From: an uncultured virus (IMG/VR IMGVR_UViG_3300035698_023946)
Lineage: Duplodnaviria > Heunggongvirae > Uroviricota > Caudoviricetes
Virus record (IMG/VR): IMGVR_UViG_3300035698_023946
Strand: one strand, 5' to 3'
Length of the DNA stretch: 64,000 nt
Under the pieces are notes generated by a model. The model searched no databases, was not told the DNA's origin, and saw nothing but the letters and a program-made list of their open reading frames with translations. The position numbers and the translations under genes were made by a program. This document shows, piece by piece, positions 1 through 23,296 of the stretch; position 1 is the first letter of the stretch; each line of letters starts with the position of its first letter.

Positions 1-272
1 ACTGGAACGCTTCCAGCCAGTAAACCGGCAATCGATTTATAATAAGAAAACCGATCTACTAACTTTACAGAAGATAATTGACTACGACTTTCTAGTCGAT
101 CACTATCTTGAATAAGGTGAGAAAGTAGCTCTAACTGTTCTTCGTCTTCAGGAATATCTAACTTAGATATGTCAACCTTCCGTTCTTCTGCGACGTTTTG
201 TTCCAGAAGACTTCGGTTTTGGATTGCGTTTCCTCTTTGCTTTTGGAAGCTCGATTTTTTCCACTTCATCAT
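1..272 (-). CDS. Hypothetical protein, N-terminal part (runs off the left edge)
   Basis: Manual translation gives an open frame MMKWKKSSFQKQRGNAIQ...LLAGSVP from ATG at 272 to the window edge; not in the ORF track. Confidence 0.45.
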   Translation of the reverse strand, partial: MMKWKKSSFQKQRGNAIQNRSLLEQNVAEERKVDISKLDIPEDEEQLELLSHLIQDSDRLESRSQLSSVKLVDRFSYYKSIAGLLAGSVP

Positions 273-927
273 AATTTGATAAATCCATATTTATTTCAAT
301 ATTAGAGCTTTTATTTTCCCCATTTTCAAATGAAGGAAATCTCTTTATATCGATTACCATTTCTTTCATTTTGATTTTACTAAGACCATGCTCCATATCC
401 AAATCAACATCTGGATAATAAATATGTGTCAAATCCTTCGGTACTGCCACAATATTGTAATTCTTGAAAATATCTGATAACTTCTTTATATTAAACAACT
501 TCAAATGACGATAAACTCTTCTACCGAGCTTTCTTTTAATCTCCTGCCTCAAAAACTCTATGTCATCAGATACCGCAACAAATGATCTAATATTATACTC
601 TATGTCATCGTGAATATCTACCAGATATGCTTCAAAAAACCTTGATTCAGCATTCTTTGCGACCTTATTTTCAAAAACACTTTCATCATCTTTGTTTTTT
701 AATTCTCCAAACTTATACGGGTATAATTCCGGTATTCTTTCGCATGGAAAGTCGTTCAAATCTACCGAACAAGAAAAATCTTGATAATCATTTTCTTCTA
801 AGTTTTCTTTCTTTTTACAACCGTTATACTTGCACCCCACACAAGAACTCCACCGATCATGCAGATATTCCACCGTTTTCTCTGCTTCAATAACTTCATA
901 TTCATCACTACACCCTTCTTTCATCAC
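172..927 (-). CDS. Hypothetical protein with basic C-terminal tail
   Basis: 251-aa ORF; 4-nt overlap with upstream gene. Confidence 0.75.
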   Translation of the reverse strand: MMKEGCSDEYEVIEAEKTVEYLHDRWSSCVGCKYNGCKKKENLEENDYQDFSCSVDLNDFPCERIPELYPYKFGELKNKDDESVFENKVAKNAESRFFEAYLVDIHDDIEYNIRSFVAVSDDIEFLRQEIKRKLGRRVYRHLKLFNIKKLSDIFKNYNIVAVPKDLTHIYYPDVDLDMEHGLSKIKMKEMVIDIKRFPSFENGENKSSNIEINMDLSNYDEVEKIELPKAKRKRNPKPKSSGTKRRRRTEG

Positions 928-2117
928 AACGCTCCTCTCTTTTTTGACTTATATTTATCTACAACTTTTTGCAATTTGTCCCAAATCTTAAAACGTTCAA
1001 TAGTATCTCTTTTATTTTCTTTTCTTTTTCTATCTCTATATTCGTGCCTATTTTTCATAGAATCATAAAGATGTTGATCGATCTCCATGTTTTGAGATAT
1101 TTTACGAATTTTACCATTCATTAATGCTGCTACCGTGCATATCGAACTACCGTTACCTAAAAACCTAACAGTTGATTCAGAACTTATTTTCTTCTTATCA
1201 ATCAGATCGTTTAAAACACATCTATGTTCTTGATCGAATTCATTCATGAAACAATTGACCAAGATAGAATCATTATCTGCTAATTTAACCTTAATAGGAT
1301 AATTGACTTCGCTATGTCTCATGACGGTTATACCCATCCTTCTTTTATTAACTTCGTCTTCAAGCTCTTCGCCTAAAGGTATCACATCTAAAAAGTTCAA
1401 GCTCTCATAATAATGATAAGCAGATTCGAAATTCAAATCAAAAGCCTGACTAAGAACTGACTTCATGTAATTCCTATTATCTCTCATGTTAATTCTATCA
1501 ACAAACTCTTGCTTATAGTTAATAGCTGCATCAAGAAAGTCTTGAGAAGCAGTTAATTCAAATTCTATCAAAAGTCTTGGTGCTCTAGCAATTATGAGAG
1601 GATTGTTTCTTATTGCAACATTCGCATCGATAGGGCATCTAAGAATCTTATCTTCTGTCAAATCTTTAAGACCCAATCCGGTGGCATCAATCATTTGCTC
1701 TTGAAAAATGTCGTAACAAAGAGTATTAACGGTGAAGTCCCTTTCGTAGATATTCCTATTCAACCATGTCAATTCCACTCCCATCCGATTCAATTCACCG
1801 TCGATATCGAAATGTACCAAAGGATTCTGAGCTGATTGAATTTCAATCTCACAACCATCCGAGATCATATGAATAGTTCCGGTGTTATCGAATTTACCCG
1901 GCTCACCAGCACCATGTTGGACCGCCAAGGTGTCTGCGAATTCGAAGTTCTTACCATTTTTTAAAATCAGGTCGATGTCTCCCTCACTAACACCATAGAC
2001 CACATGATCTCGAATAAATCCTCCAACCACAATAGGATATTCACCAATCGATTGGCCAATCGATTTGAAGTCCTCAAACAATCCTTGAACTGCATATGAA
2101 AAGGTTAATTCGTCCAT
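924..2117 (-). CDS. Class II tRNA nucleotidyltransferase / poly(A) polymerase family protein with C-terminal extension
   Basis: VVGGFIRD, GDIDL and ERDFTVN motifs; likely start MDELTF at 2117 (ORF track extends to 2162). Confidence 0.85.
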   Translation of the reverse strand: MDELTFSYAVQGLFEDFKSIGQSIGEYPIVVGGFIRDHVVYGVSEGDIDLILKNGKNFEFADTLAVQHGAGEPGKFDNTGTIHMISDGCEIEIQSAQNPLVHFDIDGELNRMGVELTWLNRNIYERDFTVNTLCYDIFQEQMIDATGLGLKDLTEDKILRCPIDANVAIRNNPLIIARAPRLLIEFELTASQDFLDAAINYKQEFVDRINMRDNRNYMKSVLSQAFDLNFESAYHYYESLNFLDVIPLGEELEDEVNKRRMGITVMRHSEVNYPIKVKLADNDSILVNCFMNEFDQEHRCVLNDLIDKKKISSESTVRFLGNGSSICTVAALMNGKIRKISQNMEIDQHLYDSMKNRHEYRDRKRKENKRDTIERFKIWDKLQKVVDKYKSKKRGAL

Positions 2118-3307
2118 GTTTCCACAAAGTCCCAAATACTTCCAGACTTGTCTCCAAACCAATTTTTAGGAGCTTCTACTACATACTTGATTCCTGAGAC
2201 ATTCCTTAAAACAGGATTTTGTTGATGTGCTTCAAGTTGTTCGACCTTAATCAAACAACCTTCATCATCAAAAGCCGCCACATCTATGTCGAAAGAAACG
2301 TTCTTATTCCAAAAGACATAACTCCCCGGTTTATCGAATAAGAATACAGCTGCTTCATCTTTGGTCAACGGTTGTTGAAACATTAACCCTTGTTCTCTTG
2401 AATGGTCGCTATCGGCCACCATCCTTATTTTAAGCTTTCTGTTTTCCAGTTCAGAAGTAGCTAATTTTCTAATTCCTTCATTTTCCCTAGAGTACCTGAT
2501 GACACTCATCAGTTTTGATGAAGAAAACTTTCTTAGTGAAGAATTCGTCTTAGATCGAACGGAAGCTCCTACACCGAAGGCATTGTCCGGAAGAGTTTGT
2601 CGATCCGGACTAAAAGGATAAGACGATTTTTCTGGATCAGAAATAGAATTATTCCAAGATTCATAATTTGATTTCAAGATCGAAGCATGAAGCGAATTCC
2701 TTATTGTAATCATATTTTGAAATTCTTGCGGTATCATTTCTACTTGTCCAGGTGAATGAAAAAAAATGATCTCTTTATCTGTCTCCTTCCACACCCTAAA
2801 TTTTTGGCCACCTAAATCAATCACACCCTTCGGAGATTGTTCAACACTTTTAAAAGCAACTTTAGAAAACTCATCGTTATCAGATTGAGGAGGATAAGAT
2901 AAAATTTGATTCACGATAGCCTTCTTTCCCTTATCTGTGATTTGGAATCTCCCATCCTCTTCAAGCAGATATCCTCTCCTCATCAATCCTTTAGCTTTAG
3001 AAGAAGTTTTTTCATCTACAGTTAAAACTGGTTCTTCATTTTTAGAATCTTGCCACAATGCGAAAAGAAGGTTTTCATCTTCCTTACTAGCAAATCCTAA
3101 AGAATTACACTGCAAGTCAATTATGTTTTGAAAATCAAAAAAAGAAGCCGGAGACTGGTTCTCTGGAATACCCATGACAATTTCATAAAGATTCGGTTTA
3201 TCGTTAAGACGTATTGACCAATTCCTATCGTCCGATTCATGAGGAGATACATGAGTCCTATAAAATGAATTTTGCGACTTTTTGAAAAGATTGCTAATTA
3301 CTTTCAT
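2105..3307 (-). CDS. Multidomain protein with C-terminal DUF192-like domain
   Basis: C-terminal ADSDHSREQGLMF...VFWNKNVSFDIDVAAFDDEG...YVVEAP resembles DUF192; internal winged-helix-like RRGYLLEEDGRFQITDKGK. Confidence 0.7.
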   Translation of the reverse strand: MKVISNLFKKSQNSFYRTHVSPHESDDRNWSIRLNDKPNLYEIVMGIPENQSPASFFDFQNIIDLQCNSLGFASKEDENLLFALWQDSKNEEPVLTVDEKTSSKAKGLMRRGYLLEEDGRFQITDKGKKAIVNQILSYPPQSDNDEFSKVAFKSVEQSPKGVIDLGGQKFRVWKETDKEIIFFHSPGQVEMIPQEFQNMITIRNSLHASILKSNYESWNNSISDPEKSSYPFSPDRQTLPDNAFGVGASVRSKTNSSLRKFSSSKLMSVIRYSRENEGIRKLATSELENRKLKIRMVADSDHSREQGLMFQQPLTKDEAAVFLFDKPGSYVFWNKNVSFDIDVAAFDDEGCLIKVEQLEAHQQNPVLRNVSGIKYVVEAPKNWFGDKSGSIWDFVETWTN

Positions 3308-4031
3308 TGTAGTAATCCTCTAGTGGTCGAGGTGAGATTATATCTATATCAAAATGTTCTAAAAGTTTCAATCCTCTGTCCTTGTCGTATCCTAATATTT
3401 TTCCAATGGCAAGAGAAAATCTTTTTTCATTGATCGACTTCAAAATCAAATCCTTATACCTAAACATGGCTCTTTGAAGATTCTCATCAATCCTATAGCC
3501 ATATCTGTTCTTAAACATGATTGCTCTCAGTATAATTATAGGATTGTTTTTAACAGAAATTGAGGGATCGATTGGTGTTCTAATCAATTTGTGACGTAAA
3601 TCAGATGCCCCCTTTTCTGTTAAATCATAAACTTTACCTGATCTAATGCTGTAGAGCAAAGAATTTATAGTAAAATCCCTAGAAAAGACATTTAAAGACG
3701 TATGATTCTGATCTACATCATATTTTCTTAACTCTTTTAAGATACTATAATTAGGAGAATAAGATTGAAATTCCAATTTAACTCCTCGATAAAACATATA
3801 GGCAGTTCCTGATCTATGATGATATTTTAAATCTACACCAAAATCGGAACTCAACAGTCCCGCCAATTTGAGGCCATTGTATTCAGGAGAAGTTAAATCT
3901 ATATCATCCCCTTTCGGATGTATCTTTTTTAAGACCTTATGTCGAACGTATCCCCCTACAGCAAATACAATAATTCCAATTGTTTTAGCCGTTCTATCTA
4001 CTTCGTCTAAAACGCTATCGAAATTATTCAT
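3294..4031 (-). CDS. Class II tRNA nucleotidyltransferase / poly(A) polymerase family protein (short)
   Basis: AVGGYVR, DDIDL and SRDFTINS motifs. Confidence 0.85.
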   Translation of the reverse strand: MNNFDSVLDEVDRTAKTIGIIVFAVGGYVRHKVLKKIHPKGDDIDLTSPEYNGLKLAGLLSSDFGVDLKYHHRSGTAYMFYRGVKLEFQSYSPNYSILKELRKYDVDQNHTSLNVFSRDFTINSLLYSIRSGKVYDLTEKGASDLRHKLIRTPIDPSISVKNNPIIILRAIMFKNRYGYRIDENLQRAMFRYKDLILKSINEKRFSLAIGKILGYDKDRGLKLLEHFDIDIISPRPLEDYYNESN

Positions 4032-4036
4032 ATCAA

Positions 4037-4441
4037 TTACGCCATTGCTGCTTCAGGCTCTTTAACAGAAGACTCGTCATAGTACCTTCCATATAAAACA
4101 TCTTTGACGAAGTCTTTCAATACAAATCTCTTAAATACAACTGGAGCTCTTTGACCGGCTTTTAAAACTTGTTCAGAATTTCTGTTGCATCCGGTTATAA
4201 AAACGACCTTCATAGATGGAAATTTATTATGGATATAATCATACAACATGATTCCGTTATTAGGATCTCCATTAATCAAGATGTCAAGAATGACATAATC
4301 GTAATCATTTTTATCTAAGAGCTTTAAAGCCTCACTTGATGAAGTACAATATTCCGATTTTACTTCTTGCATCTCGAACGCTTTATTCAAAAGAAGTGCG
4401 GTTCCGATATAATCATCTACGATTAACACTGATAATCCCAT
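4037..4441 (-). CDS. Stand-alone response regulator receiver (CheY-like) protein
   Basis: LIVDD acidic pocket, ILDI phosphoacceptor Asp, FITG, conserved Lys (FKRF). Confidence 0.85.
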   Translation of the reverse strand: MGLSVLIVDDYIGTALLLNKAFEMQEVKSEYCTSSSEALKLLDKNDYDYVILDILINGDPNNGIMLYDYIHNKFPSMKVVFITGCNRNSEQVLKAGQRAPVVFKRFVLKDFVKDVLYGRYYDESSVKEPEAAMA

Positions 4442-4465
4442 TGCCTTTACCTCTTCTACTTTATT

Positions 4466-4978
4466 TTATAAAAACATGTCTCGCTGACTTCTTTCACTCC
4501 ATGTTTCTGGTTCACAAGATGGAAGTTTTGGCCAGAACTCTCTCATCCAGGGCCACGCTCCTGGCTTTTTGTCAGGACTGTTATTCTTATTTCTCCAATG
4601 CTTTTGCATTCTTCCTATAAATTTAGGATCAGTCCTAGTGACTCTATCAAATTCGGTGATATAACCGAGGTCTTTTGTCTTCTTCTTCTTTTTCTTATTT
4701 TTTGATCGTTTCTTCTTCTTTCTTTCCAATTCGGTACGAACTGGTTTAGTTCCCTTATCCGAACCCCACTCTTCATTCATGGGACCTTCAAGATACATGT
4801 TCCAAGGCGTGACTCTTTCTCTCGTGAAAGTGTCTAAATGAGACAGTGGCCCGGTACCGCGACCAATCCCACTATCTCCCGGATAAGAACCGATCCAATC
4901 ATGATAGTGATCGGTATAGCCTCTTCCTGGAGTTTGAGCCACCTTCTCTAAAAAAGTTTTAGACCTAATGATCTTCAT
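4466..4978 (-). CDS. Hypothetical protein with poly-Lys tract
   Basis: 170-aa ORF containing RKKKKRSKNKKKKKK. Confidence 0.7.
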   Translation of the reverse strand: MKIIRSKTFLEKVAQTPGRGYTDHYHDWIGSYPGDSGIGRGTGPLSHLDTFTRERVTPWNMYLEGPMNEEWGSDKGTKPVRTELERKKKKRSKNKKKKKKTKDLGYITEFDRVTRTDPKFIGRMQKHWRNKNNSPDKKPGAWPWMREFWPKLPSCEPETWSERSQRDMFL

Positions 4979-4979
4979 A

Positions 4980-5615
4980 TTAGTTTCTCAAAAGTTTCTT
5001 GGTTATGTTCATGTATGTGTCTTTCAAACTTCTTCCAGTTTGTTTCTGAAAAGCCCTTGCATAATCGACATATCTTTCTTGGTTATTCTTTGATAAGAAT
5101 ATCTTAACGGGATTGTTATTATTCACAAATTGAGACCAACCTTTTCTAGAAACATAATTCAGCAAATCTTCGTTGGAATAATCATCTCTCATTTTAAGAT
5201 CTTCGATCATAGACTTGACGTATTCATTGATGTTCGATTTGACCCAGCCGGAAAATTTGTTTTCCGACACGGTTTCTCCATCAAATGTTTGTGTGGGGAA
5301 AAGAGGATTTTCTACCGCTTCGGACTGATCTAAAGTTTGTCGTTCTAAAGGAGTCTCAATGGCGGAAGGTTGTTCCGCAGGTAATGGTTGAATTTGCTGA
5401 ACGGGCTGTTGAACGGGCTGTTGAACGGGCTGTTGAACAGACAATTGCTCACCAGAGTTATAATCAACTAAGAACTCACCATATCCTTGATTAAGATTTG
5501 TTGTCTCTTCCATCAGCGCTTGAGATAAGGATTCAAGGCCACTTTCATCTAAGTGCTGAATTTTATGACATAACTTGTAAAAGCAAGACCTGTCTTTTTT
5601 TGAAACGATCATCAT
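4980..5615 (-). CDS. Hypothetical protein with QQPV repeats
   Basis: 211-aa ORF preceded by AGGAG. Confidence 0.75.
   Translation of the reverse strand: MMIVSKKDRSCFYKLCHKIQHLDESGLESLSQALMEETTNLNQGYGEFLVDYNSGEQLSVQQPVQQPVQQPVQQIQPLPAEQPSAIETPLERQTLDQSEAVENPLFPTQTFDGETVSENKFSGWVKSNINEYVKSMIEDLKMRDDYSNEDLLNYVSRKGWSQFVNNNNPVKIFLSKNNQERYVDYARAFQKQTGRSLKDTYMNITKKLLRN
5398..5438. repeat. 12-bp coding tandem repeat (TGAACGGGCTGT, about 3.4 copies)
   Basis: Seen directly; encodes (QQPV)n. Confidence 0.95.
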
Positions 5616-5624
5616 GAAACTCCT

Positions 5625-7169
5625 TTAATTAAGGATTACCGGACCATATAAATCCACATAATCAGAATAGGTTTTATCAAATTCGTATTTTGTGTTAATT
5701 AACTTAATCAATGTAGCAAGAGGTTTTGGATTCGACTCGGATTGAGTGCTCTTTAAAACAGGCTTATCTTCATAATAAGCAACGAAGTCATCTCCATCGC
5801 TATAGATAGAAACCATGTCATTTCCATGAGCGTTATATTTAAGAGGTATGTTGAAAAGCCATTCTCCTCTTGATTCATCTAGAATCTTCATTCTATTTTT
5901 CAACAAGGGGTTATCCTTTAAATCATCGTCTACATCATCGAGAGGAGAGCTATTGATCCCTCCAGACCAATCCATGTTGTCGTGAAGGGTTTTATACATA
6001 TGTTTTGGAGAAGTTTGTCTGACTTCATCATCCCTGCCCTTTCTTCTATGCTGATTGGTTTGCTTATTATAGCCTCCAGGATAAAAATCCTCACGATACG
6101 TTCCCGGTGGTCCCGCCAACACCTTTATGACATTCTTGACCGAAGCGTTTTTCTCATGGAATGTGAAAGGAATGTTATACTGTTTCAAATATTCTTTGAT
6201 TACGTCTATCTTGATTCCTAAACCCAATGAGTTTGCATAAACGTTTTCATCATAAGCAAATGCTACTGCAACACCGATGACTGCTTGTTTATCAGCAGAA
6301 TAAACCATTCCACCACTATCTCCAGGAATGATCTGAGCGTCAATTAAGAATTCTGTTTGTGAGTTTGGCATTTCGGTATTTGAGACGATACCAGAGGTGA
6401 CACTTTTTTGAGCGTTCAAGGGATCTCCGATGACGATGACGCCGTCACCCTTTCTAATCGTTCCGGAATTTCCAAGATTGACAGGATACACTTGGTCTTC
6501 AAACCCTGACGACTGAGTATCGACATAAAGTACAGCAAAATCCACATTCACATCATAAAGAACGATGGACGCTGGAAAATTATAGCCTTTGAATTGAACA
6601 TAAATGGCTAAATTTTGTGCTATCTCTTGATTTCTATCATAATCAGCTGTCATTTGAACGACATGAGCACAGGTCAAAACGTGTTGTTTATTAATGAAAA
6701 AACCAGACCCAGCTCCTTCCTGAGACTGGCCTTGAGCGGATTGAGTTATGACAGAAACAGCTGAATTCTCTATTTGGGAGACATAGTCAGCTAACGTTTG
6801 AGATGTCTTTGGTCTTATTTTTACTCTGCTTTTAAACTGCTTCTTTTTTGGGATATACTTTGAATGTTCAACTTCCTTATTTTGATGAGTTTTTTGAAGT
6901 CTACTTTGTTCGTTCGGCGAGAACGGATAATCATCGAAACTGGTATCCGTATATGGCCCAGTCTTTTCCCTTGGACCACGAGTGTCCTGTGTCCAATCTG
7001 CCGGGTCATGAACTACTTCTTTGTTGTTGTCTTTAAGAGTGGGCTTAACCTTTCGGATAGGTTTCGGGACAAACCTTTGGCGTTCCATCATCCCTTCAGG
7101 GATTTGCATGGAGTCGTTATTTTGAATTCGATGAACCAGATCTGGACCAAAAGATGTTATCAGTTTCAT
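5625..7169 (-). CDS. Trypsin-like (S1/HtrA-type) serine protease domain protein, no PDZ
   Basis: GSGF, LTCAHVV (His), DFAVL (Asp), PGDSGG (Ser). Confidence 0.9.
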   Translation of the reverse strand: MKLITSFGPDLVHRIQNNDSMQIPEGMMERQRFVPKPIRKVKPTLKDNNKEVVHDPADWTQDTRGPREKTGPYTDTSFDDYPFSPNEQSRLQKTHQNKEVEHSKYIPKKKQFKSRVKIRPKTSQTLADYVSQIENSAVSVITQSAQGQSQEGAGSGFFINKQHVLTCAHVVQMTADYDRNQEIAQNLAIYVQFKGYNFPASIVLYDVNVDFAVLYVDTQSSGFEDQVYPVNLGNSGTIRKGDGVIVIGDPLNAQKSVTSGIVSNTEMPNSQTEFLIDAQIIPGDSGGMVYSADKQAVIGVAVAFAYDENVYANSLGLGIKIDVIKEYLKQYNIPFTFHEKNASVKNVIKVLAGPPGTYREDFYPGGYNKQTNQHRRKGRDDEVRQTSPKHMYKTLHDNMDWSGGINSSPLDDVDDDLKDNPLLKNRMKILDESRGEWLFNIPLKYNAHGNDMVSIYSDGDDFVAYYEDKPVLKSTQSESNPKPLATLIKLINTKYEFDKTYSDYVDLYGPVILN

Positions 7170-7981
7170 TATTTATCAGATTTCTTTTCATTTTTATGCT
7201 TTCTTTGCGGAGAAAGAGCTTCTTCTAAATCGCTAGAATCAAAACCCAAATGTTCTTTATTATACTTGTGGCACTTTGGGTCTTCTTTGTTGATGTAAAT
7301 ATCTTCCATTAGAGACGAATTCTGCGTTACAGGTCCTTTCAAGCTCCATTCAACTCCCGGTTCTTTTCGTTCATAAACTGACAATAAGCTTCTCGCTTCC
7401 TTTAAACTTCCAGCTTCATCCTGTTCCACAAAAGAATTTGATTCCTGACTGAAATAACCAATGACATAACCATCCTGTGAATCTTCGTAATTCACAACAG
7501 ATTCAACAACTTTGGCCTCATCAGTTTCAGCACTCACGACATCTCGTTTTTCAACTCTATCTTTGTTCTTCTTGTAAAACTCTTGGTTCTCTTTAGCTCT
7601 AGCTTTTTCTTTCACCATGACATCATGGGTGTAAAGAGGAATCCCGTCTACATCATGAAATCTACTATCATGACATTCGTCGGCACAACCCTTTTCCAAA
7701 AGATCGTGATCTGTTTTAAGATCGTTCACATGAGAGTCCTTCTGTCTAATTTCAAGGATTCCATCACCCTCATCTTCTTCATGATCTAGGTTTTTTTGAT
7801 TGATTTGATAATCATCACCTTCGTCATTCACATGATCGCCAAATAAGGACTCTTCTAAAAATTGTTTTGGTTCCTTTCCAGATTTCTTCAAAAGGCTTGT
7901 CCAAGACTTATCTCGGTCTTCCTTGTCAGAACATCCAGAAATACTAATGAAATTATCAAATATTTGCATGATTTTCTCCAC
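7169..7981 (-). CDS. Acidic hypothetical protein
   Basis: 270-aa ORF; probable start is MQIFD after GGAG. Confidence 0.75.
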   Translation of the reverse strand: MEKIMQIFDNFISISGCSDKEDRDKSWTSLLKKSGKEPKQFLEESLFGDHVNDEGDDYQINQKNLDHEEDEGDGILEIRQKDSHVNDLKTDHDLLEKGCADECHDSRFHDVDGIPLYTHDVMVKEKARAKENQEFYKKNKDRVEKRDVVSAETDEAKVVESVVNYEDSQDGYVIGYFSQESNSFVEQDEAGSLKEARSLLSVYERKEPGVEWSLKGPVTQNSSLMEDIYINKEDPKCHKYNKEHLGFDSSDLEEALSPQRKHKNEKKSDK

Positions 7982-8009
7982 CTAGAGTATTCGATCTACA
8001 TTTTTAAGT

Positions 8010-8035
8010 ATTCTCCTCAAAACGGCTGAAAGCCT
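8010..8035 (-). promoter_or_regulatory. Possible SigH-type promoter (AGGC-N18-GAAT)
   Basis: Minus strand reads AAAGAGGCTTT...GAGAATA in the gap between terL and the downstream block; single instance. Confidence 0.3.
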
Positions 8036-8053
8036 CTTTTTTTGTGAAGAAAA

Positions 8054-10198
8054 TCAGATTCTTCCTGGACCAAATCCATAGCCTTGCACTCCTGCCCCGA
8101 ATATGCTCTGTGAGGCTGGTTGATCTGAAGAGAACCCTATGGCATACGAACCGGAGGAACGACCCATAGGAGAATCGTATGAGGAATAAACAGCCCCTGC
8201 GAGACAATCCGCTAAATCTTTAGTATTCACTTTTCCGCTTTTTGAGACGCTCACCTTTAACCCACGGCCCTTTATGTCTTCGATTCTTCTGAGGCTTTTC
8301 AGTTCATCTATCAACAAATGATCGTTACAACATACGCGAACCTTTCCCTCCTGGAACAATTGTAACAATAAACCGTAAATATTACCACCATTTAAACCAC
8401 TAAAATTAACCGATTTCAAATGAACTCCAGCTTGAGCGAATTTGAACTTACTTTCTTCAGACTGCATCAAATCATAAGTGACCATATGGACATGAAACCT
8501 TTTAGCAATTTCAATCAATTTGTTATTCAATTCATCTATGTTGTAGGTTTCTCTATCTGATCCATCATAAATTCCCGTTCCAGATGATGCATAAGACCAG
8601 TAAAATGAGGAGTCTTCGACAAAAATCTTTTTTTCTTTAATTTTCCTATCTTCCTCCCAGTGCCCTACTAAGCAAGCATAATTTGCGCTACCAGTACCTG
8701 CCCAATCGATATGCATGAAATACCTTTGCGTCAAGTCGGGGACCAGATCGAAAGGAAGTCTCTTCCTTTCATAGTCAATCGAATCATCGATCAAACGATG
8801 CGGAATGAAAACATCAGAACCAGCCGCGACGAACTGTCCTCCATAGACCTTCTTAAACTTAACTGAATTTGGATCTCCACCAAATTCAGATCCATATTTT
8901 CTAACTAGAGACCTAATTGAATAAATCCGATTGTATTCCCATGTCGGCATCTGAAAAACCAAATGTTGATCGAAATAACTTTCGCCTACCACATCGTCAT
9001 AATCTAATTCAGTATCTGGATCGTCCTTGACAATTTGCTCATATTCTTCTTCTTGAGTTTTCTTGACTCTAAATCCTTCCAAATCTGTTCCCTGAACAAA
9101 ATGCTCATAGAATTTTCCTTCAGGTAGATCGGGGGCCGAAATCAAAATGATTCTTCCATCTCCTCTTCGTTCTCTGTAAAGAGAAGATGCCGGAACGAGT
9201 GCTTCAAGAATTGTGGCATCAGCATTAGCTCCTTCTTGATTAAACAATGCAAATTCATCGAATATGGCCAGAACGGCCCCCAACCCATGAGCACCCTTAC
9301 TGTTTGCTCCGACAGTCTTAATCATCAGGCTACCCTTATGCTCTGGTTGACCATGCTCCAACATCCTTTCACCATGAACTATGTCTGCTTCAGTTTTGAA
9401 GTAGATGATTCCATCTCCCTCTAGGTGTATCCACCTACCATCAAAAAACGTTGTTTCAGCTAAATTGTCTAAAATGTATTTTAACATGGGGTCTTTGGCC
9501 TGATCTTGTTTGGTGGCCGCGAGAAGGATTCTTAAAGGCTCGAACCCTCTGATCTTATAATATGCTTGAGGATAATTGAGTAATGTGTCTCCGCACTCTG
9601 GACACTTTTCACCACTTCTCTTATTAACAGCTTCCTTACACCTTTTACAAGTAACAATGCTTAACAGCTTGTAAATTTCATATGTCGCTATGAGAGCTGA
9701 CAAATAAGACTTTCCACTACGACGACCGAGAACGAGGACCAAATAGTCAAATGGATTCTGAGATACATTCGGATCTTTTAAGATATTGAATTTTTCACCC
9801 AACCAATAATTACCTCCCCACTGTTGAACGTCGTCCTCGATTATGGATTCATCATTTATGATGTTTACGATATCTTCATCCTTAGACAATTTTTTCATAT
9901 AACTATTGTCAACATAAGAGCTATAATTACAAACCGTCTTTATGAGATCGGCATCTTCCGAAGTTAACTCCAAATTCTCATTCCCTAAAGTTTTGTAGTA
10001 AAAAAGCTTAAGACATAATTTCATATAAGGAAATTCTGAAAAATCTGTATGAACAAAATCTTCAGCAAAAGTAATGATATCTACGATGTTCTTTTGATCT
10101 GTCTTAGACATGATCTCGGACTGCTTATCTCTAAGCACTTCCGACATTATTTCTGAGATAGATTTAACTTTTTGTTGCTTCGGTTTTCTTCTTACCAT
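8054..10198 (-). CDS. terL: Terminase large subunit
   Basis: LGRRSGKS Walker A, AIFDE Walker B, ILISAP motif III, HIDWA and DLADCL nuclease motifs. Confidence 0.9.
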   Translation of the reverse strand: MVRRKPKQQKVKSISEIMSEVLRDKQSEIMSKTDQKNIVDIITFAEDFVHTDFSEFPYMKLCLKLFYYKTLGNENLELTSEDADLIKTVCNYSSYVDNSYMKKLSKDEDIVNIINDESIIEDDVQQWGGNYWLGEKFNILKDPNVSQNPFDYLVLVLGRRSGKSYLSALIATYEIYKLLSIVTCKRCKEAVNKRSGEKCPECGDTLLNYPQAYYKIRGFEPLRILLAATKQDQAKDPMLKYILDNLAETTFFDGRWIHLEGDGIIYFKTEADIVHGERMLEHGQPEHKGSLMIKTVGANSKGAHGLGAVLAIFDEFALFNQEGANADATILEALVPASSLYRERRGDGRIILISAPDLPEGKFYEHFVQGTDLEGFRVKKTQEEEYEQIVKDDPDTELDYDDVVGESYFDQHLVFQMPTWEYNRIYSIRSLVRKYGSEFGGDPNSVKFKKVYGGQFVAAGSDVFIPHRLIDDSIDYERKRLPFDLVPDLTQRYFMHIDWAGTGSANYACLVGHWEEDRKIKEKKIFVEDSSFYWSYASSGTGIYDGSDRETYNIDELNNKLIEIAKRFHVHMVTYDLMQSEESKFKFAQAGVHLKSVNFSGLNGGNIYGLLLQLFQEGKVRVCCNDHLLIDELKSLRRIEDIKGRGLKVSVSKSGKVNTKDLADCLAGAVYSSYDSPMGRSSGSYAIGFSSDQPASQSIFGAGVQGYGFGPGRI

Positions 10199-11613: not shown

Positions 11614-12573
11614 TTAAGCAACGATCACAACTCTAGATTTGTAAACATCTTCTTGAGAGTAAACTTCTGTACACAAGTGTTTTCCATCTCTAGCAACACC
11701 CCAATCTGGATGGCGATGTAATTCAATTGCAATTCCTTCAGTATTTGCAGAAGAGACGATCCCCTCTACAATCCCTTTGTTAGGAATATTCCATTCAACA
11801 ATAGCGCCTGTTTCTATTTTACGATTGTTAGAATCAACATATACTAAATCCGGTTTTTCTTCAGAAGAATCATCGACTAGCCAGTAGCATTCACAGCTTT
11901 CATTGTTGCAAACTTTCACCAAGGGGTCATCTACCAATGTGGCCACAATCGCTCTTGGATTTCCATTATTTATGTCAAAATCAACAAAATCATTTTCCGT
12001 GAAAGCTCCTCTCGCCTTAACTACGACACTGACCTGAGAATCTTCTTGTCCGAAAACGTAATAAGCATAAATCTGACCTAATTTATGTTCGGCACCAACA
12101 ATCGGCATTCCTCTAGCGTTATTAACATCTAAAGTATTGTTTACTACAGATTCCATTGTTGTTACTTTAGCGAAGTTCTTCGTTCCACAAGAAGTGCAAA
12201 CTTGGCCATTCGCCTTAAGATCTTGCAAATGAGACTGTTCTCCACAACTCATACATTCGTAAATGTGCTCTAAATCGATTTGTTCTTCAACAGATCGATT
12301 TTCTTCTTGTAAGTCTGGATTATCAATCACAATCCCTGGGCAATTTGCAATGGCACACACTCCCTGATTCTTTACTGCATCTTCTTCTGTAAAAAGATCC
12401 CCACAAGTATCACAAACAAATTTGGCATACCTTCTCATCGACTCTCTAGCTGCCAATCTCTTTTGAATTTGAGGATTGTTTGAATTCTCTTGTAAATTAA
12501 CCAAAAATCGATGCATCCAGCCATCGGGGTCTTGTTGCATTTTTAACAATTCTGCAGTCTCTTGATTAAACAT
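11614..12573 (-). CDS. Zinc-ribbon-containing hypothetical protein
   Basis: CDTC, CAIANC, CMSC, CTSC. Confidence 0.75.
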   Translation of the reverse strand: MFNQETAELLKMQQDPDGWMHRFLVNLQENSNNPQIQKRLAARESMRRYAKFVCDTCGDLFTEEDAVKNQGVCAIANCPGIVIDNPDLQEENRSVEEQIDLEHIYECMSCGEQSHLQDLKANGQVCTSCGTKNFAKVTTMESVVNNTLDVNNARGMPIVGAEHKLGQIYAYYVFGQEDSQVSVVVKARGAFTENDFVDFDINNGNPRAIVATLVDDPLVKVCNNESCECYWLVDDSSEEKPDLVYVDSNNRKIETGAIVEWNIPNKGIVEGIVSSANTEGIAIELHRHPDWGVARDGKHLCTEVYSQEDVYKSRVVIVA

Positions 12574-12591
12574 AATACTGGTCTCCTTAGA

Positions 12592-13740
12592 CTATTTAGG
12601 AACATTTATTAATTCCCTATCTATTAAATGCGATATAGCTATGCAAATCGCGTCAGCTTCATGCTCCTGTATCATTTTCGCCTTTTTATCCGAATGCTTC
12701 ACGGCCCACTTGATTGTCGCTTCCTTATCAGAAGCCGCATCTCCCAAAACCTTCAATTTGAAGTGTTTTGGAGAAATAGTTAAAAAAGGTATACTATATT
12801 GTTCTGCGATAAGTCTAAAAACTCCTACATTTTCATTCAACAAAGTACGAATCTTTGCAACCCCAAATCCATAGGCCGATTCTGACACAATGACCTTACA
12901 AGAATAATCAGAGACTAATTTTTCAACAAACTCATATATTTTCTTGATCGTTTTCTCACGACTGAAATAACTTGGCATCTCAAAAGTTCCAGACTCAACA
13001 CACTTGAACTTTCCATTCCGGTAATTCATGACACAGAATCCTAAATTAGTAGTTGTCGGTGGATCGATTGTCAAAAAGTTAAAATTACTGTAAAAGTTGA
13101 TCCCACCATAGAACAATGACTGAAGAATATCTTTAACGGTTAAATCTTCACACATTTCAATTACCACTGGCATATTAGAATTTTTTATCAAACCCCTCAA
13201 CTCGCGGCGGTATTTGTCAAAAGCATAATTAGATTTATGTAAACTCTTATGATAATACAAATCTGTCAAAGGAAACAACTCGACACCAAACTTGTTGTCA
13301 CCATCAGAGTACATCGCTCCACCTGAAGTCTCATATAAATGAAAGTCACAATTAAGAAAATTGCATAAAAATTTGAATAAGTCTTTTTGAGACTCTATGA
13401 TATCTTCTAAAGTTCCATCATAAAAAAAAGTATTCGCAATTTCCTTATACAATCTAGACTTTCCGCCATTACTACCCTCTATCAGAGACATCGCATCTTC
13501 AGGGATGTTCCCGTCCGGATATTCAAGACAGATATTGTTATAGTTCCAAATACGACTACCAAAATCTTTCAACTCTTCAGATTTCAACATCACATTTTTG
13601 TAATTGCTGAATTTAGAAGAGACATGTTTATGTAGTTTGGGGTTATAACGAGCTACAGCATGTGGGTTAAAAGTTCGATACTTTTCAAAAAAATGTTCTG
13701 AATCTTTAAGTATTTTTTCAGTTGTAATTCTAGCAGCCAT
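12592..13740 (-). CDS. ruvC: RuvC-like Holliday junction resolvase with long N-terminal domain
   Basis: LTIDP..TNLGF, IVSES, ISPKHFK, HEADAICIA. Confidence 0.8.
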   Translation of the reverse strand: MAARITTEKILKDSEHFFEKYRTFNPHAVARYNPKLHKHVSSKFSNYKNVMLKSEELKDFGSRIWNYNNICLEYPDGNIPEDAMSLIEGSNGGKSRLYKEIANTFFYDGTLEDIIESQKDLFKFLCNFLNCDFHLYETSGGAMYSDGDNKFGVELFPLTDLYYHKSLHKSNYAFDKYRRELRGLIKNSNMPVVIEMCEDLTVKDILQSLFYGGINFYSNFNFLTIDPPTTTNLGFCVMNYRNGKFKCVESGTFEMPSYFSREKTIKKIYEFVEKLVSDYSCKVIVSESAYGFGVAKIRTLLNENVGVFRLIAEQYSIPFLTISPKHFKLKVLGDAASDKEATIKWAVKHSDKKAKMIQEHEADAICIAISHLIDRELINVPK

Positions 13741-13741
13741 G

Positions 13742-13788
13742 ACAGTATGATATCTCCAAAATTTTTGTCTTTAGAGATATTATACTGT
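13742..13788 (-). promoter_or_regulatory. Stem-loop covering the ruvC Shine-Dalgarno, with TATAAT in its 5' arm
   Basis: ACAGTATGATATCTC (13742-13756) pairs with GAGATATTATACTGT (13774-13788), one mismatch. Confidence 0.65.
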
Positions 13789-13829
13789 TTTTGAAATGAA
13801 GATAAGGAATAAAATTTTAGGAGGAATTG

Positions 13830-14465
13830 TCAATCTTTAAAAAATCTTGCATAAATATCATCCATGATATCGCTAGACCTATCATAAAGATCACTTAAAG
13901 ATCCGTCATTATGAACTACATAATCACAATCTTCATCCTTTATTGACAAACCATTATCAGAAATGTGATCAGACAATTCGGCTCCTTCAGTTCTCTGGAC
14001 ATCTATGATGATCACATTCTTAAAACGTTCTTTAAACTTTTCGATTTCATTGTCGAAACGAACATCGGTGATAAATCCGACGGTATTACCTCCAAAAACA
14101 TCTGGAGACTTAAAGTATTCATGGATCAACTGAGTAGTCCTTTCGATCCAAACGTCATCAAAAAACATCTTCCTGAAGATATCTGACCCAATGATCTGCA
14201 TCAATTGCCTAGGAGTCGCATTCTTCGTCAATCCTTCAATTGGAACTCCACAGGGCTTTTCTTTCAAATCAGACTCCATCTGTTCCTTCTTCAATCCAAA
14301 AGCCGTATGACAAATGACCTTTATCGGGTAAGCCAAAGCCCACTGCTGAACGTACAGCCCAGAATAGTAGGATATCGCATGAGTGGCCATCCCCTCAGCC
14401 AAGGAATTCTTACCCGACCGACTTCCAGTATCTTTCGCAGTCAATAATGCCAAAACTTCCGCCAT
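13830..14465 (-). CDS. Deoxynucleoside monophosphate kinase
   Basis: SRSGKN P-loop, TPRQLMQIIG, ITDVRFDNE, HISD, NDGS. Confidence 0.85.
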   Translation of the reverse strand: MAEVLALLTAKDTGSRSGKNSLAEGMATHAISYYSGLYVQQWALAYPIKVICHTAFGLKKEQMESDLKEKPCGVPIEGLTKNATPRQLMQIIGSDIFRKMFFDDVWIERTTQLIHEYFKSPDVFGGNTVGFITDVRFDNEIEKFKERFKNVIIIDVQRTEGAELSDHISDNGLSIKDEDCDYVVHNDGSLSDLYDRSSDIMDDIYARFFKD

Positions 14466-16294: not shown

Positions 16295-17758
16295 TCAACT
16301 TTTCAAGAGGATTTCACTTTTTAATCTTTGTACAAACTCTTTAGTTAATTTAACCTCTTCTTCATTCATGTATTCTGATTCTTCTTTATTCTTCAATTTT
16401 TCATCTAGCCCTTTGCGGCAAGCGATCAATTTATTGTCAAGATTGTCACACATTTCATTGCTTCGGCGGTCGATAATTTGGTCACGATCTTTTCCTATTG
16501 ATACCCATCTGATCTTCATACCGATTTGCTCTTCAATGAATTCGACATACTTTCTGGCATTCTCTGGAAGATCTTCAAAACGCCTACAACTACTTATGTC
16601 TTCTCTCCAACCAGGAAGATACGAATATACTGGACTCATGAAGCGTAAATCTTTTGTGAGTGGGAAGTCGTCCACCGCTTCACCTGTTCTTTGATCTTCA
16701 TAGGCGATGCAAACTGGGATTTCATCGTAGTTATCAAGAATATCTAATTTGGTTAAAAAGATATCTGTGGCACCATGAAGTTCTAAACCATATTTCACTC
16801 CCACCAAATCTAGATTTCCTACTCTACGCTTATTTCCACTAGTTCTACCTATCTCATCTCCAAGAGAAACTAATTTATCTGCTTCTTCATCTTTGATCGC
16901 CGTGACAAAATCGCCGCTGCCTACGGTGGTGGCATAACTTTTTATCAAAGTAATCACTTTGTCAACATGTTTTGGAGAAATTCCACATGACACAGGAACA
17001 AAAGATGCCAAACAACAAGAAGAAGTGACATGCGGAAAAATTCCATGGAAAATTGATCTTTGGCTTCCGAGCTGCGTTTCGGCAAAAATTGACTTTCCTT
17101 CCTCTAAATATTTATTAATAAGTTTTCTAGTATCTGTCAAATACGATTTTATTCTATCTCTATAAGATTTGATTTCCCGCAAAATCTCTTCAGGAGTTGT
17201 AATGGTAAGATCTTCCGAAATTAAACCTTGATCACGATACATCCCGCAAATAGCAACTTTGATATCATATGCATCTTTCAATCTATCCAAAATATATTCA
17301 TCACTTTCATATATCTCATTTATCTGTAAACTTTTCTTAGAAGATCTATCTGAATCTGCCTGAGTAACTCCCTTGCATGTACTGAAGAATTTATTCTTAC
17401 CAAGCCTTGCTTCTTCAATTAAATTTAGGTCAATATGATAAGGAAGAATCAAATGGAGACGATCAGAAATTGCAATTTTGGGATCAATGCCCATGCTATT
17501 TAACTCGTCCAACTCAAGTAAGAACTGGGACGGGTTTAGAAGCACGGCTGTTGCAATCACGTTCAAACAATCTGGATTAAAACAACCAGAAGGCATCGCG
17601 TGACAAGTAAACGAGCCGAATTCGTTACTGATTTCGCCTCCGCGATTATTTCCACCATTAACTCTAATCATCATATCTGCATCTTTAGCGAACAAATCAC
17701 AAGCACGAGATTTGCCGCTATCACCGCCAAACGAATCTGCGATCACTGTGATTCCCAT
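16295..17758 (-). CDS. purA: Adenylosuccinate synthetase family protein (divergent)
   Basis: GDSGKS, MPSG, PHVTSS, RRVG, LTKLD, LPGW, LPENA, SIG. Confidence 0.9.
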   Translation of the reverse strand: MGITVIADSFGGDSGKSRACDLFAKDADMMIRVNGGNNRGGEISNEFGSFTCHAMPSGCFNPDCLNVIATAVLLNPSQFLLELDELNSMGIDPKIAISDRLHLILPYHIDLNLIEEARLGKNKFFSTCKGVTQADSDRSSKKSLQINEIYESDEYILDRLKDAYDIKVAICGMYRDQGLISEDLTITTPEEILREIKSYRDRIKSYLTDTRKLINKYLEEGKSIFAETQLGSQRSIFHGIFPHVTSSCCLASFVPVSCGISPKHVDKVITLIKSYATTVGSGDFVTAIKDEEADKLVSLGDEIGRTSGNKRRVGNLDLVGVKYGLELHGATDIFLTKLDILDNYDEIPVCIAYEDQRTGEAVDDFPLTKDLRFMSPVYSYLPGWREDISSCRRFEDLPENARKYVEFIEEQIGMKIRWVSIGKDRDQIIDRRSNEMCDNLDNKLIACRKGLDEKLKNKEESEYMNEEEVKLTKEFVQRLKSEILLKS

Positions 17759-20826: not shown

Positions 20827-22014
20827 TTATCCTTTAGTGATATTTAAAGCATGAGTTTGTGCTTCATGCAATCCGCCCAATGTGGCCATTCTAAATCTTG
20901 CCTTCTTTCTAAAATCCCGTATGTTACGTGCTCCCGTATAAGTCAAACCAGATCGAACTCCACAGAGAAGGTCTTCCACGACATCTTCAGTCATTCCGGT
21001 ATAAGGCAAATCGACTGAAATACCCTCGACGTAATATCCCGACTTTCTTTTTTCAGAGTAATTTTTCTGTTCTTCTTCCGAAGCCATCCCTCGGTAACGA
21101 ACTCCAACTATCTCGTAATTTCCTTCTTTATCAAAATTGCCAGCCACCTTGTCAGCCGGAGATGAAAAAGTCGTACTCAGTAAGCTCCCCAAATCTAAAG
21201 CGTCTGCTCCGACTGCCAAAGACTTCACCAAATCTGAACTGATCCTCAAACCACCATCCGCAAAACACTTTAAATTCATTTCTTCACAACGGGAGGCGCA
21301 TTCAATCAATGATTGAAATAATGGAATCCCATGACCGGTTTTCATTCGAGTGCTACAGATGCTACCGCTTCCAATTCCCACACGAACGCCATCGCAATAT
21401 GGTCGTAGAAATTCAGCCGCTGCCGGAGTCGCAATAGTTCCCGCGAGTATTTTAGGGATTGGAACGATGTTGGAATTACAATAATCTTGCAATTCCTTCA
21501 ATGTCTCTTTATAGATTTCGGTATGAGCGTGAGCGGCATCCAGAACTATGAAATATTTGAATTCTCTTGAAATCTCAAGAGTGTGATTGAACTTCTTCAC
21601 AGCACGTTCAAAATACTTGATCCTTTCTTTCCATGTCCCACAACTCACCGCAAACCCGACGACATAATCTGTGCCATCATATATCTCGTCACGATCAGGA
21701 TCGTGAAGAGCAGTTTCAAACATGCCTCCCTGCTCTTCTGGTTTACAACCGCGATGGAGCATTCCAGTGCCCCCACAACGCAACATGGCTTGGATCATCT
21801 CTGGGCCACACACAGTGCTCATGCAAGTGGCCACAATCGGGTTCGCTATCTTATAACCGTCGAAAATCTCCCAACTCAAATCGACTTCATCCCTCGATGC
21901 AATATTCGAATATTGTGGAACTAACCATACATCATCGAAAGTGAGAGCGGCTTTGTCGTTGACGAAGACCTCTCTTTCTAATCCATAACTAGGATTTAAG
22001 ATTTCTGACCCCAT
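20827..22014 (-). CDS. guaB: IMP dehydrogenase / GMP reductase family protein (no CBS domains)
   Basis: LTFDDV.LVP, LDAAHAH, GIGSGSICSTR, ADGG, YRGMAS, VEG, SGLTYTGA. Confidence 0.9.
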   Translation of the reverse strand: MGSEILNPSYGLEREVFVNDKAALTFDDVWLVPQYSNIASRDEVDLSWEIFDGYKIANPIVATCMSTVCGPEMIQAMLRCGGTGMLHRGCKPEEQGGMFETALHDPDRDEIYDGTDYVVGFAVSCGTWKERIKYFERAVKKFNHTLEISREFKYFIVLDAAHAHTEIYKETLKELQDYCNSNIVPIPKILAGTIATPAAAEFLRPYCDGVRVGIGSGSICSTRMKTGHGIPLFQSLIECASRCEEMNLKCFADGGLRISSDLVKSLAVGADALDLGSLLSTTFSSPADKVAGNFDKEGNYEIVGVRYRGMASEEEQKNYSEKRKSGYYVEGISVDLPYTGMTEDVVEDLLCGVRSGLTYTGARNIRDFRKKARFRMATLGGLHEAQTHALNITKG

Positions 22015-22738: not shown

Positions 22739-23296
22739 TCAACACCTTCTTTTATCTAGGTCTTGCAACTTATGCCTCAATTCTACTCGAAGAGATATTT
22801 CCGATGGAGGGTGAGAGGAAATCGGTATCCCATTAATAAATTCTGGCAATTTACTATAATCCCAATCGTCTATGCTGGAAAGCAGTTGTCTTCCCTCCAA
22901 GTAAAGAGCAATCTTATCAAATTTCGCAACTGATTCTTTCTCTCTCGGACAATGGAATCTTTCATGCACAATTTGGATTATCTTTTCTTCGATTTTCTGA
23001 TAACCGGGAAGCAAGTGTTTAAATGGAGACAAAAGGTCCGAAAGATATATCTCTGAGATGTCATGAATGAGGCAAGCGTCCAGAGTATCTTGTGATGACT
23101 CATTCTTCTTAGCCAATTGAAGAACAAATAAGGTATGTTCTGCGACAGAATAGAATCTTCTACAATGCCCTCCAAACCTTGTCAACAAAGGCATCGCATG
23201 AACGATATCGTCAATGCTTATTTGTTCAGGCTTTGGATCGATAGTTGAGAAAGCTATTCCTGAAAAAGTCCGGATGTAATCTTGATCGCTAATCAT
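22739..23296 (-). CDS. HD-domain phosphohydrolase (YfbR/YfdR-like 5'-deoxynucleotidase)
   Basis: RFGGH, YSVAEH, LIHDISE.YLSD, conserved later Asp. Confidence 0.85.
   Translation of the reverse strand: MISDQDYIRTFSGIAFSTIDPKPEQISIDDIVHAMPLLTRFGGHCRRFYSVAEHTLFVLQLAKKNESSQDTLDACLIHDISEIYLSDLLSPFKHLLPGYQKIEEKIIQIVHERFHCPREKESVAKFDKIALYLEGRQLLSSIDDWDYSKLPEFINGIPISSHPPSEISLRVELRHKLQDLDKRRC

Follow-up and report, generated by a model that had tools for sequence, protein, structure and literature searches.

Two phage class II nucleotidyltransferases with NNPxI in place of EDxxR, encoded around a DUF192 gene

We analyzed a stretch of 64,000 nucleotides (nt) from an uncultured virus (IMG/VR record IMGVR_UViG_3300035698_023946; the whole stretch is referred to as the window). 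Three overlapping open reading frames (ORFs) at positions 924-4031 of its minus strand encode, in this order, a nucleotidyltransferase (NTase-B), a fusion of a domain here called X with DUF192 (X-DUF192), and a second nucleotidyltransferase (NTase-A). Both enzymes retain the catalytic motifs of class II nucleotidyltransferases and carry NNPxI at the position of EDxxR (motif D). Judged from alignments and the conservation of the new residues, this replacement is more than chance. We lean towards the reading that the two proteins are active RNA 3′-end nucleotidyltransferases with a re-specified nucleotide pocket, working together with X-DUF192, and not ordinary CCA-adding enzymes. Templating of nucleic-acid synthesis by a protein has EDxxR as its textbook example, and the motif is regarded as nearly invariant among class II enzymes. 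Its Asp and Arg make Watson-Crick-like bonds to CTP and ATP (PMC2532741, PMC11784652).

The two nucleotidyltransferases and their motif D

The cassette comprises three genes, all on the minus strand:

3294..4031, minus strand: NTase-B, a class II nucleotidyltransferase of 245 amino acids (aa), head and neck only (PF01743, 53.2 bits; AlphaFold2 pLDDT 93.8)
2105..3307, minus strand: X-DUF192 fusion protein, 400 aa; winged-helix-like X domain at the N terminus, DUF192 domain at the C terminus
924..2117, minus strand: NTase-A, a class II nucleotidyltransferase of 397 aa, with head, neck, helical region, and basic C-terminal segment (PF01743, 49.6 bits)

The stop of NTase-B and the start of the middle gene overlap by 14 nt, and the end of the middle gene overlaps the NTase-A ATG by 13 nt. 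NTase-A was listed as 924..2162 (412 aa from a TTG at 2162), but its start is most likely the ATG at 2117, because its homologs (P0029-P0033) begin there. Outside the cassette, the window contains no further class II enzyme and no further DUF192 gene.

Both NTases exceed the gathering cutoff of PF01743 (PolyA_pol head; 23 bits), which places them in the class II superfamily. Together with the translations, these scores bear out a preliminary description of the stretch, which had proposed two CCA-family enzymes with GGxxR, DxD, and RDFTxN retained. The motifs read GGFIRD, GDIDL, ERDFTVN, and AIRNNPLIIARAPR in NTase-A, and GGYVRH, DDIDL, SRDFTIN, and SVKNNPIIILRAIM in NTase-B. In motif B, R-D and T..N are kept in both proteins, while the first Arg of RRD is Glu in NTase-A and Ser in NTase-B. 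The two enzymes are 29% identical over 192 residues. Their main elements lie at the following positions:

3897..3956, minus strand: NTase-B motif A (GGYVRH ... DDIDL) with the catalytic carboxylates; G26, G27, R30, D43, and D45 invariant in alignment A1
1971..2024, minus strand: NTase-A motif A (GGFIRD ... GDIDL); G32, G33, R36, D37, D47, and D49 invariant in alignment A7, the GGxxR and DxD positions also in A3
3534..3548, minus strand: NTase-B motif D position, residues 162-166, NNPII for EDxxR; aligned to ddplr/edplr/edpvr of solved enzymes
1593..1607, minus strand: NTase-A motif D position, residues 171-175 counted from the ATG at 2117, NNPLI for EDxxR; aligned to edplr/ddplr of 9ns4 and 9ns2; N, P, I, and I invariant in alignment A3
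978..1085, minus strand: conserved basic C-terminal segment of NTase-A (HL..R..EYRDRKRKE.K); L350, Y360, R363, K364, and E367 nearly invariant in the 22 sequences of alignment A7

For the assignment of motif D, both proteins were compared by phmmer with solved class II enzymes, i.e. the Arabidopsis CCA enzyme (9kma), S. pombe cca1/cca2 (9ns4 and 9ns2), the Aquifex-type enzyme 4wby, and a Thermotoga enzyme (3h37). NNPII and NNPLI aligned with (E/D)DP(L/V/T)R in every column, and the subsequent LRAxxF helix was in register as well. No displaced [ED][ED]xxR occurs in NTase-A. The only such string in NTase-B is DEVDR at residues 9-13, which belongs to the N-terminal helix and is distant from the neck. 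The replacement claimed beforehand for both copies was thus confirmed, and the intact EDxxR elsewhere that would have spoken against it was not found.

In Foldseek searches, the AlphaFold2 model of NTase-B matched class II CCA- and A-adding enzymes with E values of 1e-11 to 1e-13 (TMq 0.70-0.77); 4wby was among the best matches (E 7.5e-14, TMq 0.75). With TMt values of 0.44-0.53, the model spans only about half of each target, and NTase-B therefore consists of head and neck alone. Neither PF12627 nor PF13735, which represent body and tail, was detected in either NTase at E values up to 0.01, although the C-terminal half of NTase-A may hold a divergent body domain. Equivalog cutoffs of NCBIfam (A-tRNAntase, pcnB, tRNA_CCA_actino, PRK13299, and PRK10885) were not reached, the best scores being 42.7 and 51.6 bits compared with cutoffs of 290-1440. 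By motif D, body and tail domains, and NCBIfam cutoffs, the two proteins are thus assigned to the class II superfamily but outside the CCA-, CC-, and A-adding and poly(A) polymerase (PAP) families. From its composition, the basic C-terminal segment of NTase-A is a candidate RNA-binding tail.

Motif D states and linkage to X and DUF192

The altered motif D is a trait of both families. In the seven close homologs of NTase-B (identity 51-58%), the sequence is (S/T/V)(N/D)PIIILRAIMF, with Ile in all seven, Asn in six, and Asp in one. In five homologs of NTase-A (34-63% identical), N, P, I, and I are invariant, preceded by N or F at the first position. Among 1.84 billion representatives, the NTase-B family profile found 15,032 matches (E up to 1e-3). 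The best 150 of these 15,032 were pooled with IMG/VR and JGI loci and thinned to less than 90% identity, resulting in a set of 249 domains. Motif D was (D/E)xxR in 138 of them, lacked both Asp and Arg in 96, and was mixed in 15. Among the 96, the Asp position was occupied by Asn in 83 cases and by Ser in nine, and the Arg position by I, V, L, M, A, or N; in none of the 83 was Asn paired with Arg. The catalytic core was largely kept in these rows (GG..R in 92, DxD in 82, and RD in 93). The Asp of GGxxRD was present in 38 of the 96, compared with 131 of the 138 DxxR rows; NTase-B has His at this position.

Short class II enzymes with xNPΦΦ form a large clade, met here in viral and metagenome sequence only, and many of its members are C-terminal domains of proteins of 800-1130 aa. 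The N-terminal 550-900 residues of 28 such fused proteins contained no further informative Pfam family, except for a 2′-5′ RNA ligase-like domain in P0183, an SLH domain in P0092, and two sub-threshold matches. The fused members matched no PHROG beyond the NTase and showed no BLASTP similarity to other ORFs of the window, and residues 1-860 of P0061 had no usable ESM Atlas match. One cassette NTase (L044, 9932-12961) forms a fusion with a polyvalent-protein-type ADP-ribosyltransferase domain (PF18760, E 8e-16).

Conservation in both families and in the large viral clade, retention of the catalytic residues, and the absence of any Asn-Arg combination among the 83 all speak for selection. The same applies to published in vivo selections for A- or CCA-repair, which never yielded a human enzyme altered at Asp165 or Arg168 even though Asn was present in the library (PMC11784652). 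That library offered E, D, R, N, K, S, G, T, and A at all three positions and returned only E, D, or G at the first (PMC11784652). The preliminary description had taken the same substitution in two diverged copies as a sign of selected specificity. Selection is supported by the present data, while two independent events are not, since both copies fall into one phage super-clade in which xNPΦΦ is common.

The relationships were analyzed with FastTree on the 249 domains after removal of the motif D columns. A cellular group of 88 rows (80 of them DxxR) was separated from a phage/metagenome group of 161 rows, comprising 92 without Asp and Arg, 58 with both, and 11 mixed. NTase-B belongs to its own clade of nine rows (support 99) and NTase-A to one of ten rows (support 98). 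The latter groups weakly (83) with the NTase-long clade, whose members, among them the NTases that abut DUF192 in L030-L084, share the full architecture of NTase-A including the basic C-terminal segment. Because the backbone of the tree is weak, one and two losses of Asp and Arg in the paralogs were not told apart.

Within NTase-long, motif D occurs as DPKR/EPKR, NPKI/NPKN, SPKN/SCKN, and SPNR, and orthologs that are 64-77% identical differ in state. In an IQ-TREE analysis (LG+C20, 27 rows), well-supported branches force at least four changes between DxxR and non-DxxR, and a tree holding the seven DxxR rows together was rejected by the approximately unbiased (AU) test (p 0.0013). Across head and neck, the two motif D columns alone separate the states perfectly. 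Concerted change, discrete states, and rare intermediates therefore favor alternative selected pockets over decay, and we argue for this interpretation of the aligned sequences.

The middle gene of the cassette contains two recognizable domains:

2774..3160, minus strand: X domain, residues ~50-178; jackhmmer matches in 19 other loci; winged-helix-like
2153..2419, minus strand: DUF192 domain, residues 297-385; PF02643, 57.8 bits (cutoff 27; 1.2e-15); PDB entry 3pjy, E 1.1e-4

In the DUF192 alignment (A6, 26 sequences), A31, G40, L41, F55, and E111 are invariant. The X domain has no Pfam match. Its model reached a pLDDT of 64.8, with 79-91 in the core (residues 31-93 of the modelled piece), and residues 25-102 matched the winged helices of MarR, DtxR, and Rio2-N at Z scores of 6-8, the top 50 matches being mostly MarR/DtxR-type regulators. 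Since such scores are only middling and in the range of common arrangements, the predicted winged-helix fold is tentative. An alternative start of X-DUF192 lies at 3175, in line with an ESM Atlas entry that begins at residue 45; the longer ORF from 3307 was preferred because the ortholog in L011 aligns upstream of this residue. Full-length MAFFT alignments of the fusion with its single-domain relatives (A4 and A5) were dropped, as half of X was misplaced onto DUF192, and replaced by alignments per domain (A6 and A8). A complex prediction for NTase-A (A7) with the DUF192 domain (A6) scored 0.01 against a mark of 0.32, which counts neither for nor against binding. Three columns of DUF192 and six of X separate DxxR from non-DxxR loci; with samples of 3-4 versus 7 and shared ancestry, they were not used as evidence. 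An ESM Atlas cluster pairs viral DUF192 with DUF6321.

To follow the cassette beyond the window, 89 loci found with the NTase-B family (nine from IMG/VR and the best 80 of 192 JGI metagenome loci) were analyzed, and neighboring genes were searched by jackhmmer. DUF192 was detected in 34 of them and X in 19; Pfam confirmed DUF192 in the five neighbors scanned. Three arrangements, differing by clade, were seen: (i) X, DUF192, and NTase-long in this order, with abutting or overlapping genes (L027-L051 and L084); (ii) short NTase, X, and then DUF192, 0.6-4.4 kb downstream (L001, L013-L017, L021, and L023); and (iii) X fused to DUF192 (the window and L011). The window combines the first two around a single X-DUF192 gene. 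In other loci, X and DUF192 are separate neighboring genes. Overall, the association of NTase, X, and DUF192 is maintained although the gene order takes three forms, two of the genes can be fused, and enzyme identity falls as low as 25-35%.

DUF192 accompanied 21 of the 25 loci without Asp and Arg (eight of nine with adequate flanks), compared with 12 of the 59 DxxR loci; three of the four loci lacking both Asp/Arg and DUF192 end within 275 nt of the NTase gene. As a control, the 80 nearest loci were taken from one genome per prokaryote species: all 80 had DxxR, and none had DUF192 within 8 kb. The link to the DUF192 gene, suspected earlier from its position between the two enzymes, is therefore real and extends well beyond the window. 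Separately, DUF192 was seen within proteins of 500-740 aa that otherwise lack a recognized domain, 6-8 kb downstream of a DxxR short NTase (L039, L043, L045, L052, L054, L076, L085, and L088).

A second, full-length CCA-adding enzyme was located 0-3 kb downstream in six of the nine NTase-long loci with at least 3 kb of downstream sequence. These canonical enzymes (820-1130 aa) are:

L029, 2969-5881
L036, 9153-12089
L040, 6243-8882
L044, 12937-16332
L049, 11394-13859
L050, 11528-14590

They contain the PolyA_pol head together with an RNA-binding domain and an HD or tRNA_NucTran2_2 domain, and EDxLR or DDxLR was seen in five of the six. With a separate canonical enzyme adjoining the cassette, the cassette NTase therefore appears to add to, and not to replace, canonical CCA synthesis in those phages. 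This adjacency is a hint, and the only one here, linking the cassette to tRNA ends.

Proposed function and alternative explanations

The mechanism we have in mind would operate as follows. The cassette, tightly packed and probably co-translated, belongs to a large, previously unsequenced salt-lake phage. With the metal-binding DxD, GGxxR, and the ribose/triphosphate motif RDFTxN intact, both NTases are predicted to be catalytically competent and template-independent. The part of the protein that serves as template, recognizing CTP and ATP by their Watson-Crick edge, has been rebuilt, with Asn for Asp, Ile for Arg, and the Glu position free to vary. As the Asn amide is both a hydrogen-bond donor and acceptor, it could pair with either polarity of a base edge, the guanidinium being gone. 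RNA 3′ ends would then be extended with a nucleotide choice other or broader than C-C-A. X-DUF192 may supply substrate binding or control to the NTases, as NTase-B is without a body or tail domain of its own and NTase-A has a basic tail instead. The target is probably the 3′ end of a tRNA or of another structured RNA, where the activity would complement canonical CCA addition and not replace it.

Several observations weigh against this reading. No tRNA gene was detected in the window (hence no direct pointer to tRNA) or in 33 related loci, and the window had no Rfam match at the gathering score. The 249 domains were picked by similarity to NTase-B, so that their counts are not prevalences, and the linkage counts are not independent, because related loci share ancestry. 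Apart from the weak FastTree backbone, the IQ-TREE analysis kept the motif D columns, which can only favor grouping by state, and the AU test, whose group was named after the first tree had been seen, shares the weaknesses of the model. Furthermore, close orthologs with intact DxxR occur in the same cassette, and its function must therefore fit a canonical pocket as well. CCA-adding enzymes are also reported to still make CCA through a backup when the templating Arg is replaced (PMC2532741), so that the loss of Arg alone does not exclude CCA addition.

The last two points also fit ordinary tRNA CCA-adding or -repair enzymes, possibly CC- and A-adders sharing the job, which would reach the same product with another template (e.g. 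by pairing of both C and A with the Asn amide, or by selection with the help of the primer). All nearest solved relatives of the two proteins are indeed CCA-, CC-, or A-adding enzymes, the matching PHROGs are labelled tRNA nucleotidyltransferase, and no canonical CCA enzyme was seen within the 64-kb window. We nevertheless consider this unlikely. Asp and Arg were irreplaceable in the A- and CCA-repair selections, and CC-adders vary at the first template position only (PMC11784652). In addition, NTase-B lacks body and tail, NCBIfam scores for CCA and PAP models are far below their cutoffs (51.6 vs. 1440 and 47.7 vs. 438.8), and in related phages a distinct canonical CCA enzyme is encoded next to the cassette. 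Distinctly less probable is a role as host-directed weapons, delivered or made early, that place wrong nucleotides on host tRNA or RNA 3′ ends to block charging or mark decay, with X-DUF192 as targeting or safety subunit. Such a role would agree with the many clade members at the C terminus of large proteins without another recognized domain, with the ortholog fused to the PF18760 ADP-ribosyltransferase, and with repeated switching of pocket states, as expected for a conflict system; an Arg-less E. coli PAP (R215A) incorporates A, C, and U randomly (PMC2532741). The adjoining canonical CCA enzyme fits repair at least equally well, however, and a weapon would differ from the preferred RNA 3′-end extension in its biological role only, the chemistry being the same.

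A target other than an RNA 3′ end, i.e. nucleotidylation of a protein (perhaps X-DUF192), a DNA end, or a small molecule, seems very unlikely to us. In its favor, the pocket for reading C and A has been lost, NTase-B lacks a body or tail for RNA binding, the partner domains are without known function, and a winged helix could bind DNA. On the other hand, the ribose/triphosphate residues of motif B are retained, as is the entire head and neck typical of class II enzymes that extend RNA, NTase-A has its conserved basic tail, and we know of no precedent for nucleotidylation of non-RNA targets by class II enzymes, though no search aimed at one was made. We give hardly any credence to inactive pseudoenzymes that bind RNA or nucleotides as decoys or sponges. 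The loss of the base-reading Asp and Arg would be compatible with them, as would the frequent loss of the GGxxRD Asp in the clade and its replacement by His in NTase-B, but DxD, GG..R, and RD are retained across the clade, and conservation extends to the Asn-Pro of the rebuilt motif.

Beyond the favored reading of active, re-specified RNA 3′-end nucleotidyltransferases, a broader picture may be drawn, which we put forward tentatively and with some doubt. One or two short class II NTases, a winged-helix protein, and DUF192 might form a virus-specific three-part system writing RNA ends, whose base-reading residues flip among D..R, N..I, and S..N. Phages might in this way repeatedly re-programme the nucleotide on 3′ ends of tRNAs or other RNAs, in an arms race with host defenses that attack or inspect these ends. 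Cho, Verlinde, and Weiner reportedly engineered CCA enzymes adding U and G in 2007. If the three-part system were true, it would provide natural counterparts of such (U,G)-adding enzymes and a first functional context for DUF192.

Source phage, neighboring genes, and known systems

All genes of the window lie on the minus strand, and its G+C content is ~36%. It is phage DNA and carries genes for a large terminase, a head protease, DNA replication proteins, a sigma factor, and nucleotide metabolism. The terminase is at most 24.5% identical to known phage records and the NTases have only distant matches there (at most 30% identity); the best IMG/VR match was 35% identical. The DNA is present in six DNA sequencing runs, all but one labelled salt lake metagenome, and no RNA sequencing run containing it was listed. 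Promoter and terminator scans of positions 1-8200 gave counts no different from those of shuffled sequences.

Two genes adjoin the cassette. The upstream one is the following:

4037..4441, minus strand: stand-alone response-regulator receiver gene, directly upstream of NTase-B (PF00072, 51 bits)

The order receiver, NTase-B, X-DUF192 recurs in L011 (55% identical; receiver at 602-961), and the receiver gene may be considered a candidate member of the cassette. L033 has a PAS histidine kinase and a receiver-PAS protein behind the cassette (11736-14278). At the other end, a Cys-rich ORF of 251 aa (172-927, minus strand) begins 4 nt inside the end of NTase-A. It was matched in neither Pfam, PHROG, nor NCBIfam, and none of the 89 loci has a relative; it is a possible fourth gene of the cassette, peculiar to this phage.

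Further genes were noted elsewhere in the window and in related contigs. A homolog of PurZ-type adenylosuccinate synthetase (phrog_1211, E 8e-76) is encoded at 16295-17758 (minus strand), near a dNMP kinase (13830-14465), an HD-type dNMP phosphatase (22739-23296), a dehydrogenase (20827-22014), and a thymidylate synthase (47104-47892); a base of the phage DNA may thus be replaced, e.g. by 2-aminoadenine. The DNA polymerase (phrog_405) is split over two abutting ORFs at 52965-54899 and 54899-56233 (minus strand), with an N-terminal part of 444 aa and a C-terminal part of 644 aa, and the primase likewise resides in two separate genes (48850-49566 and 61739-62419). An ATP-dependent protease/chaperone-like protein of 1043 aa (phrog_4871, E 1e-204; 30494-33625), a GroES-like gene (25284-25625), and the sigma factor (28268-29044) are encoded on the minus strand, and Cpn60 and RecA occur in related contigs. 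Related phage contigs also have inteins with LAGLIDADG domains, inserted in a DEAD-box helicase and in one more large gene (L033, 4021-7575; L049, 3913-7023; L020, 16950-20705).

A whole virus-borne clade with concerted replacement of EDxxR, whose members switch between states, offers natural experiments on protein-templated base choice and a possible source of RNA 3′-tailing enzymes with new nucleotide preferences. The link to X and DUF192 gives a testable context to a widespread domain family of no known function. It also points to an unexplored phage layer of RNA 3′-end control, repair, or sabotage beside the canonical phage CCA-adding enzymes. In the literature on DUF192, on CCA-adding enzymes and EDxxR, and on phage CCA enzymes, judged mostly from titles and abstracts, no description of the motif D variant or the cassette was found. 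The listed titles and abstracts on DUF192, UPF0127, COG1430, or PF02643 yielded nothing on function or on a phage nucleotidyltransferase. The available portion of a jumbo-phage survey mentions phage CCA-adding enzymes as tRNA-end repair only (PMC7824862).

Among phage protein families, both window NTases match PHROGs 2244 and 24229 (E 1e-7 to 1e-15), and PHROG 24229 has the same length as NTase-B (245 residues). The name of these families, tRNA nucleotidyltransferase, is annotation only, and the matches are weak with partial coverage.

The split CC- and A-adding enzymes (Aquifex 1vfg/4wby/4wc2; S. pombe cca1/cca2, 9ns2/9ns4) resemble the window pair in having two class II paralogs per genome, and they provide its best sequence matches in the PDB. 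Yet both partners of such pairs keep Asp and Arg (PMC11784652), which are missing from the window pair, and the division into CC- and A-addition, which the preliminary description had brought up as a model, is therefore a poor analogy. Most related phage loci also differ from split pairs in having a single such enzyme plus X and DUF192. Bacterial PAP I (PcnB; 3aqk/3aql/3aqm) shares the head-neck core, and its engineered Arg-less form is the nearest experimental analogue (PMC2532741). In contrast to the window NTases, natural PAP keeps EDxxR, and PcnB models of NCBIfam gave 31-48 bits against cutoffs of 306-702. Finally, class II CCA-adding enzymes (Geobacillus 1miv, Thermotoga 3h37/5hc9, Planococcus 6qy6, human 1ou5/4x4w, and Arabidopsis 9kma) have the head-neck fold, GGxxR...DxD, RDFTxN, and the LRAxxF helix in common with the window enzymes. 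The latter differ from them by Asn and Ile for Asp and Arg, by a Glu that is not kept, by Ser or Glu for the first Arg of RRD, and by their linkage to X and DUF192, which sets them apart from the 80 nearest cellular loci.

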